A stretch of 64,000 nt of DNA from Nostoc sp. (GCF_036917535.1 NZ_JBALDA010000031.1:1242-65241); one strand, 5' to 3'. Positions 33,635 to 34,983 are shown, counted from the stretch's first letter. The notes: generated by a model not told the origin, from the letters alone. Program-made: numbers and translations.

Positions 33635-33868
33635 TTAAGATTTTGATTGTGCAGCTTGCCTAACAACTTGTTCGTCCAAACCTAACGCTTGAGCTATCTG
33701 CTCAATACTGAAACCAAACGCTAACAAGTGCGGTATCACTTCTAACTTAGCTTCTAACTTACCTTCTTGTTTAGCTTCTTCAAAAACTTCTTGCTTACCT
33801 TGTTTTTTACCTTCTTCAAAAACATCTTGGAAAAATCTAGTTTGCCTCAAGTCATTTAATTCAAACAT
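33635..33868 (-). CDS. Stand-alone Rpn C-terminal cassette 3 (77 aa), preceded by a ~60-bp Rpn fragment
   Basis: aggaggagatcggaaaa-ATG; MFELNDLRQTRFFQDVF...IAQALGLDEQVVRQAAQSKS. Confidence 0.7.
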   Translation of the reverse strand: MFELNDLRQTRFFQDVFEEGKKQGKQEVFEEAKQEGKLEAKLEVIPHLLAFGFSIEQIAQALGLDEQVVRQAAQSKS

Positions 33869-33961
33869 TTTTCCGATCTCCTCCTGGCTCAATCGCAGCA
33901 ACTTGTAGATTAATATCGTCTCTATCAAACGCACTGTTAAACCTTCGCGCACCCTATTGTT

Positions 33962-34159
33962 TTAGGATTTTAGTTGTGCAGCTTGCCTAACAACTTGTTC
34001 ATCCAAACCTAACGCTTGAGCTATCTGCTCAATACTCAACCCCAGTGCTAATAGCTGGGGTATCGTTTCTAACTTACCTTCTTGTCTACCTTCTTGTTTA
34101 CCTTCTGCAAAAACATCTTGGTAAAATCTAGTTTGCTTTAACTCATTTGATCCAAACAT
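33962..34159 (-). CDS. Stand-alone Rpn C-terminal cassette 2 (65 aa)
   Basis: Own AGGAGG RBS begins 3 nt after the Rpn stop; near-copy of 34180-34389. Confidence 0.75.
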   Translation of the reverse strand: MFGSNELKQTRFYQDVFAEGKQEGRQEGKLETIPQLLALGLSIEQIAQALGLDEQVVRQAAQLKS

Positions 34160-34179
34160 TTTTCCGATCTCCTCCTGTT

Positions 34180-34983
34180 TTAGGATTTCGGTTGTGCAGC
34201 TTGCCTAACAAGTTGTTCGTCCAAACCTAACGCTTGAGCTATCTGCTGAATACTTAAACCCAACCCTAATAACTGGGGTACGGCTTCTAACTTACCTTCT
34301 TGTCTACCTTCTTGTTTACCTTCTTGTTTACCTTCTGCAAAAACATCTTGGTAAAATCTAGTTTGCTTTAACTCATTTGATCCAAACATTTTTCCGATCT
34401 CCTCCTGGCTCAATCGCGGCAACTTATAGATTAATATCGTCTCTATCAATTGTATAATTTCCCTAATAGTAGCGACATCTAAAATTTGCTGTCGAGCACT
34501 GTTGACTATTTCGATAGCTCTTGTTGTCGCAGTTGATTCAGGTTCGATGATGAGTTTAACTGTCTCTATGCCGATTGATGATGCCTCAATTGAGCTTAAT
34601 TCGTCAAGATAGACGCGAGTTACTCGTTGTGAGTTGAGCAATTCTGTATATCTTTCGGTATCTCCAGTATCAACACTGCGGTTAGGGTAGATGACAACAC
34701 CACGCCAATTGTTGGTTAATTCGGTTTTGTCAAGATAGTTAAAGATTTCGGTAAATAAACGTGAATAGAATTTTTTGTCTGATTGAAATTGCACTTCAGC
34801 AAAATAAATCGGTAATTCTGGCATATTTGGGAGAAAGACACCATCGATTCTAAACGCCAGTTGTTTAACTTCTACTGAAGAAAATTGGTAAGCACTAGCC
34901 AGTTGGGGCGGTTGGTTAATCAGTTCAAAGAAAGTAGTTGGGATACTCTGAAAGATCCGATAGAAGATGCTGTCTGTTTTCAA
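34180..34983 (-). CDS. Rpn family nuclease/putative transposase (DUF2887 type) with internal RBS+ATG at 34389
   Basis: MKTDSIFYRIFQ, FRIDGVF, AEVQFQ and TRFYQDVF + (KQEG)n repeats. Confidence 0.9.
   Translation of the reverse strand: MKTDSIFYRIFQSIPTTFFELINQPPQLASAYQFSSVEVKQLAFRIDGVFLPNMPELPIYFAEVQFQSDKKFYSRLFTEIFNYLDKTELTNNWRGVVIYPNRSVDTGDTERYTELLNSQRVTRVYLDELSSIEASSIGIETVKLIIEPESTATTRAIEIVNSARQQILDVATIREIIQLIETILIYKLPRLSQEEIGKMFGSNELKQTRFYQDVFAEGKQEGKQEGRQEGKLEAVPQLLGLGLSIQQIAQALGLDEQLVRQAAQPKS

Follow-up and report, generated by a model that had tools for sequence, protein, structure and literature searches.

The closest described systems are the Rpn elements of Escherichia coli, rpnE-ypaA (rpnE_Ss) and rpnC-rpnC_Ss, in which an internal start within the gene yields the antitoxin RpnS (Zhong et al. 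2023, PNAS, PMC10400941). RpnL is toxic or nucleolytic, with an anti-phage effect, and is neutralised by its cognate RpnS, which folds as a bundle of three helices with a long, dimerising first helix that carries 4-aa repeats near its beginning. Stand-alone rpnSs genes are also found downstream, each having originated independently from its own upstream gene. Variable dodecamer (4-aa) repeats set the specificity of these products, and a mismatch of one repeat abolishes RpnC neutralisation. The rpnSs genes can be lost by deletion or by fusion between the N-domain and rpnSs, and Rpn arrays arise by tandem duplication, RpnL itself being speculated to drive such recombination (PMC10400941). The E. 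coli RpnS is HTH-like in look, yet acts by binding RpnL. Koonin's commentary likewise covers these Rpn elements.

An array resembling these elements is found in a Nostoc sp. genome, within a stretch of 64,000 nucleotides that was analysed as a whole and is referred to as the window. It comprises the following features.

35012-35039, minus strand: promoter-like site TCGCCA-16-TAAAAT, ~25 nt 5' of the TTG start (34981-34983), a consensus match only
34180-34983, minus strand: rpnL-like gene, 267 aa, with a DUF2887 PD-(D/E)XK nuclease domain (aa 1-198) and a C-terminal tail
34401-34406, minus strand: internal Shine-Dalgarno (SD) AGGAGG, about 10-11 nt 5' of the internal ATG, read from the sequence and conserved in orthologs
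34389-34387, minus strand: internal ATG, arranged as AGGAGG-N10-ATG and corresponding to Met199
34180-34389, minus strand: predicted internal RpnS-like product, 69 aa, with a head (34330-34389), three 12-nt (K/R)QEG units (34294-34329) and an HTH-like tail (34183-34293)
33962-34176, minus strand: cassette 2 (type T2), with its SD at 34171-34176 and an ORF at 33962-34159 (65 aa, two repeat units)
33635-33952, minus strand: cassette 3 (type T3), with its SD at 33880-33885 and an ORF from 33868 to 33635 (77 aa, five 4-aa units of different spelling)
33592-33613, minus strand: GC-rich hairpin GGGGC-N12-GCCCC followed by a T-rich run, behind the last cassette (weak fold, z -1.4)

The array is best explained as a Rpn-type gene-within-a-gene toxin/antitoxin locus, the antitoxin-like tail of which was tandemly duplicated twice; this explanation as a whole is given a probability of about 0.72. 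By homology, the full-length RpnL-like protein would be a PD-(D/E)XK DNA endonuclease, poorly translated from a TTG codon without ribosome-binding site, whereas the strong internal AGGAGG-ATG would yield the C-terminal ~69 aa (RpnS-like) as a separate and more abundant product. The RpnS-like product is then expected to bind the RpnL tail, so that RpnL would be held inactive. Comparison of the species shows that SD, ATG and tail were copied just behind the gene on two occasions, first as T3 and more recently as T2, giving stand-alone and probably co-transcribed cassettes. These cassettes are dispensable: they have been repeatedly lost, pseudogenised, or fused back by unequal homologous recombination, replacing part of the gene tail.

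The Nostoc locus and the two E. coli systems have in common the PD-(D/E)XK N-domain followed by a small helical/HTH-like tail, an SD and ATG inside the gene where the two domains meet, a free-standing downstream copy derived from the upstream gene, and a variable number of dodecamer repeats ~20 residues after the internal Met. Copy loss by deletion or N-domain fusion is also shared, as is presence/absence variation without terminal repeats. The Nostoc gene falls in the cyanobacterial DUF2887 (PF11103) branch and not in PF04754/YhgA. It has not one trailing copy but two, which differ in age, and the DUF4351 model does not recognise its tail. The locus is traceable through 33 species but known from sequence alone, whereas the E. 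coli work is experimental. The layout is already described for rpnE-ypaA and this is no new kind of system or mechanism. The idea put forward in the original prediction is not new either: the rpnSs genes, their origin, the 4-aa repeat variation and the fusions are all found in Zhong et al. 2023 (PMC10400941). Nevertheless, the RpnL/RpnS layout with downstream RpnSs copies, known from enterobacteria and Firmicutes, here gains a cyanobacterial branch, DUF2887. New with respect to the E. coli work is one syntenic locus over ~33 species, in which the age of the duplicates, purifying selection, repeated loss and fusion-driven tail replacement can be followed. Nostoc is thereby a convenient natural data set on the purpose of the extra tail genes, a question left by Zhong et al.

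Judged by profile searches, the window gene is an Rpn-family nuclease of the DUF2887 branch, with the internal AGGAGG and ATG (34389, 69-aa product) that the original prediction had read in it. PF11103 (DUF2887) matches the first 200 residues of the 267-aa protein (E 3.8e-81), and TIGR01784, the NCBIfam Rpn-family model, matches it end to end with 149.8 bits for a cut-off of 52.1 (E 1.3e-43). The latter model also scores above its cut-off in the E. coli control genome, with further matches among the control genomes in Synechococcus elongatus and Bacteroides. Orthologs in public data come from Nostoc, with the annotation "Rpn family recombination-promoting nuclease". The protein includes catalytic-type residues in FRID47GVF and E63-V-Q65; E63, V64 and Q65 are invariant among 59 aligned homologs, and D47 is nearly invariant (conserved in at least 90% of them). 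These residues follow the active-site pattern D ... E-x-Q described for DUF2887 (PMC3045609). PADLOC 2.0 holds no model matching the gene or a cassette. At E <= 0.01, neither the gene nor a cassette is matched by PF14261 (DUF4351), and a genome-wide PF14261 scan returned 20 places, none of them at the rpn/hupS locus.

The AF2 model of the full-length protein (pLDDT 78.5) displays a confident alpha/beta N-domain, then a long helix (209-233) and three short helices, with pLDDT < 50 over residues 203-228. The repeat tract is helical in this model and unstructured in the 69-aa model, neither prediction being confident. Better support exists for the three short tail helices, which have weak HTH fold matches in Foldseek, none to an Rpn entry. 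PD-(D/E)XK nucleases are the top Foldseek neighbours of the N-domain model, none being significant. Indeed, all matches of the full-length and 69-aa models against the PDB have E > 0.05, with no Rpn entry among them, and a PDB sequence search with the full protein returned a marginal HTH match alone (2x48, E 0.35). Structural equivalence to RpnA_S is accordingly unsupported by these Foldseek searches.

The full-length gene starts with TTG without an SD sequence. This feature is shared by the orthologs, with TTG in 22 and GTG in 4 of the 27 (26/27 together) and no purine-rich leader. The internal start displays AGGAGGAGATCGGAAAA-ATG, which precedes cassette 2 and cassette 3 too. A TTG or GTG without SD at the full-length start, as against AGGAGG-N10-ATG at the internal and cassette starts, fits a low-toxin, high-antitoxin translation ratio and suggests that such a ratio may be built into the locus. 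Met199 and E195 are invariant among 59 diverse homologs, down to 55% identity. Inside the gene, AGGAGG doubles as coding sequence for part of Q-E-E, and its conservation there is confounded with protein constraint on the conserved Q/R-E-E. The AGGAGG of cassette 2 has no coding role and is retained in the intact copies. Upstream, the TGTAAAATA motif stands ~25-30 nt 5' of the TTG and is conserved in most orthologs. No terminator was found between gene and cassettes by a minus-strand search inside the array. The flank behind the last module is conserved in all species compared, and the hairpin located there (33592-33613) is a possible shared terminator. Co-transcription of gene and cassettes is plausible from this arrangement.

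The three copies of the module are 82-87% identical according to the repeat finder, and the module is a duplication rather than a chance resemblance. The two downstream repeats had been announced as 65-aa and 77-aa frames behind the same ribosome-binding site, and the ORFs, SD and ATG are as claimed. The identity pattern between gene and cassette 2 was also correctly seen: in a pairwise alignment, the first 93 aligned nt are identical except for one 12-nt unit, followed by 10 mismatches in 37 nt and then 4 in the last 68 nt. The duplicated segment extends from the internal AGGAGG to four bases beyond the stop codon. Cassette 2 starts three bases past the TAA of the gene (SD 34176-34171), and the junction TAAAAC-AGGAGG is also found in L002-L006. 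Cassette 3 carries ~70 nt of extra upstream gene sequence (33869-33952), a relic of the last helix of the nuclease domain. A read-through or frameshift fusion of gene and cassette 2 was ruled out, because cassette 2 is in a different frame, with 20 nt from stop to ATG. The module evolves slowly over its first 60 nt, whatever the copy or species (0-6 differences), so that the identical 5' stretch is not peculiar to the window genome. Recent gene conversion, considered as the source of the identical 5' 93 nt, is unneeded, given that every copy has a nearly invariant head.

The cassettes are 86% and 64% identical to the tail of the adjacent gene, versus at most 64% to those of other paralogs, and T2 and T3 group in the tree with the gene tails of the same locus. 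Both cassettes derive from the adjacent gene, as do the ypaA-type rpnSs genes. The suggestion that they protect against paralogous Rpn toxins is not supported, as both are closest to the adjacent gene and not to the C63, C44, C50 or C18 paralogs.

The locus, flanked by hupS and a TPR gene, was recovered from 33 same-genus genomes, including that of the window (L001). Gene, T2 and T3 are all found, some copies being decayed, in L001, L002, L003, L004 and L005. The gene is followed by T2 only in L006, an arrangement also seen in L026, where the nuclease domain is deleted, and by T3 only in L007, L010, L012, L014, L015, L022 and L023. It stands alone in 12 genomes, with disrupted copies in L018, L024 and probably L025. 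L027 and L030 retain remnants, and five genomes display no rpn sequence. The cassette copy number, 0 to 2 per locus, never exceeds two in the 33 species; with two gains, many losses and four pseudogenisations, the "expandable bank" initially proposed has no support at this locus.

Outside the window genome, 4 of the 6 T2 orthologs (L002-L006 and L026) are intact, the copy of L003 having a mutated SD and a premature stop, and that of L005 an ATG changed to ATA and a premature stop. T3 is intact in 10 of its 12 occurrences and decayed in L002 and L012. SD and ATG are kept in all intact cassette copies. With pseudogenes in 4 of 19 cassette occurrences and about half of the gene-bearing species devoid of cassette, any benefit of a cassette would be weak or conditional. 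The tree built on head plus tail unites every T3 copy in a single clade (support 100/99) and places T2 copies among the gene tails; in it, a derived clade (96/87) holds the gene tails of those four species where T2 and gene are both intact. On a flanking-gene tree, the cassette states are dispersed, with different states in sister species (L007 vs L013; L015, L017, L026). Since T3 is a single clade and the states are scattered, the history deduced from these trees is one of two duplications, the old T3 and the younger T2, followed by many independent losses.

The array adjoins the uptake-hydrogenase genes hupS and hupL (window 30547-33206, minus strand), lying upstream of them in the promoter-side intergenic region, and the hupS-to-TPR spacer is a variable site within the genus. 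In L030 (G026:C4, locus positions ~1456-1512), the last 52 nt of T3 are joined to the rpn start region and everything between is gone, which is a clean deletion remnant. Five other species carry ~270-400 bp of unrelated sequence at the rpn site. A transposon reading was set aside, as no terminal repeats were seen and the loss boundaries vary among species, in agreement with PMC10400941.

Coding constraint was estimated from pN/pS pooled over the non-repeat codons of 27 in-gene tails, 5 T2 and 10 T3 sequences. The values are 0.22 for in-gene tails, 0.27 for T2 and 0.30 for T3. Variable columns are in excess at third codon positions both for T3 (8/8/19, p=0.009) and for T2 (6/7/14, p=0.04). Comparison of these sequences shows the intact cassettes to be kept as protein-coding genes under purifying selection. 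Neutral decay in related strains, considered in the original prediction, is at odds with the pN/pS of the intact cassettes (0.27-0.30), while 4 of the 19 occurrences are pseudogenes. Occasional gene conversion from the gene copy under selection could inflate the constraint read from pN/pS below 1. However, gene and T2 tails of one genome differ at 9-14 of 111 nt, whereas gene tails differ between those species at 1-9 positions and the T2 copies of L001, L002, L004 and L006 among themselves at 4-8, so that the constraint is not accounted for by tail homogenisation. Many Nostoc assemblies annotate the small cassette proteins as genes, and about 117 clusters of such proteins are present in public data, nearly all from Nostoc.

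These results bear directly on the view that the cassettes are functionless debris of tandem duplication, a by-product of the 12-nt tract or of the Rpn nuclease, decaying slowly, and that their apparent constraint is due to a recent origin and to gene conversion by the selected parent gene. The decayed T2 and T3 copies described above are what such debris would leave, as are the many independent losses, even between sisters such as L007 and L013, and the deletion remnant of L030; the repeat spellings of gene and T2 also track each other within genomes, suggesting conversion. A recent origin is nevertheless at odds with T3, which is old, monophyletic, marked by fixed differences of its own (MFELNDLRQTRFF, IPHLLAFG), and intact in 10/12 species with the constraint just given. 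Taken with the divergence of gene and T2 tails within genomes and the retained SD and ATG, this makes debris an unlikely explanation.

Between head and tail, the 27 orthologs carry 4-aa units (K/R/I/E)QEG starting at residue 21 after the internal Met. The number of units in the gene ranges from 1 to 10, which gives predicted internal products of 61-97 aa. T3 differs in the spelling of its tract (KKxG KQEV FEEA), and its length equals that of the gene in 1/10 genomes only. In L001, L002, L004 and L006, T2 falls short of the gene by exactly one unit, with unit spellings matching within each genome; as a rule, this "-1 unit" relation is not significant (permutation p ~1/6, four non-independent species). 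Because they hardly ever share the helix-1 repeat number of the adjacent gene, and by analogy with the RpnC experiment, the cassettes are more likely to be modulators or raw material than extra doses of cognate antitoxin: speculatively, they might tune the RpnL/RpnS equilibrium or supply material for tail replacement. The longest tract belongs to the gene tail of L019 (G016), which has ten units including unusual WQEG units and a predicted internal product of 97 aa, while the gene tail of L023 (G018) is made of eight perfect RQEG units with a predicted product of 89 aa.

A rather improbable proposal is that the trailing tails are working parts, a small stand-by set with a helix 1 whose length is kept out of register with the adjacent gene. 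Such a set would buffer or tune RpnL activation and, by unequal recombination as in L013, L016 and L009, permit a one-step change of the nuclease tail together with its internal antitoxin. If true, such a set would offer a cassette-swap route for escaping phage-encoded Rpn inhibitors.

Replacement of tails by recombination has left traces in the genus. In the cassette-less genes of L013, L016 and L009, the 5' 46 nt of the tail are closest to other gene tails, whereas the 3' 66 nt depart at 0-1 positions from the T3 of L007 (L013 and L007 being sister species) and at 3 or more from any other gene tail. These genes run directly into the flank found behind T3 elsewhere. A gene-like 5' part, a T3-like 3' part and the T3 flank are as unequal crossing-over would leave them, and the three tails are probably products of such a deletion-fusion between gene and T3, on evidence that is good but not conclusive. 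Nearest-neighbour distances were used here in place of a two-parent breakpoint test, which was discarded because controls possessing their own T3 gave similar "breakpoints"; the test is unreliable because the L007 gene carries lineage-specific changes. Painting of diagnostic sites between gene tails and T3 had little power, as only 2 of 8 fixed differences fall in the tail. A T3-like 3' end is also found in the second cassette of L026.

The same chimeras would be expected if the cassettes were a pilS-like store of alternative tails to be copied or recombined into the gene, altering its C-terminal specificity, their own translation being incidental. The cassettes differ from the gene chiefly in repeat number and in helices 2-3, and the recombination role speculated for RpnL by Zhong et al. 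(PMC10400941) could be invoked as well. Yet all recombinants fit a deletion-fusion that destroys the donor, and no species keeps both a cassette and its sequence in the gene. Furthermore, a silent donor needs neither SD, ATG nor protein constraint, all three of which have been retained. A locus has no more than 0-2 cassettes, and the two-parent breakpoint test is confounded by the changes of the L007 lineage. A store of this type is quite improbable. The C-termini that the original prediction described as swappable have indeed recombined between gene and cassette (L013, L016, L009), but only by fusions consuming the cassette and not by non-destructive donation.

It is highly improbable that the tail modules are small HTH DNA-binding transcription regulators, acting by autorepression on the rpn promoter or on the hupSL promoter instead of inhibiting a nuclease: the last ~35 aa do model as an HTH (best folds SIRV1 ORF55, IstA HTH, serine-recombinase HTH and GerE) with sequence matches to Sigma70_r4, HTH_23 and MerR below cut-offs, a resolvase-like HTH was proposed for the DUF2887 family (PMC3045609) and the array is directly upstream of hupS, but all fold and profile matches are below significance, the equally HTH-like RpnS of E. 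coli acts on RpnL (PMC10400941), and the trailing-tail paralogs of the same genome sit in contexts unrelated to hupSL, so that no link to these genes is indicated.

Other Rpn genes followed by tails are present in the window genome. A second DUF2887 paralog of 271 aa (G000:C63:101856-103061) is followed by a 75-aa tail frame without 4-aa repeat tract. An Rpn-type gene with a DUF4351 tail is followed by a stand-alone DUF4351 copy at G000:C75:80317-81358, and an unrelated 194-aa gene lies between a similar gene and its copy at C38:96938-98970. At C15:184956-188547, a DUF4351 gene and copy form a duplicated, partly decayed block beside a VapBC-like pair. Orphan tails are found on C61 and C14, and about half of the 20 DUF4351 matches of this genome are short frames. 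C63, C75 and C38 share the gene-plus-tail layout of the window array, a layout with a precedent in PMC10400941. The stand-alone DUF4351 (PF14261) genes beside Rpn/PDDEXK genes resemble the window array by their gene and trailing tail pairs (C75, C38, C15); they differ in that the window tails do not score with PF14261 and represent a separate tail type on DUF2887. The orphan CT-immunity arrays of Rhs/CdiA also include displaced C-terminal modules in tandem, swappable by homologous recombination. This is an analogy only, as the protein family is unrelated and the Nostoc array has no immunity genes, and its modules carry their own ribosome-binding site and start codon and match the inhibitory rather than the toxic part. 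In other cyanobacteria, a second complete or partial tail is fused in frame in several DUF2887 homologs (P0159, P0165/P0212/P0229/P0237), which indicates that tail duplication recurs across the family.
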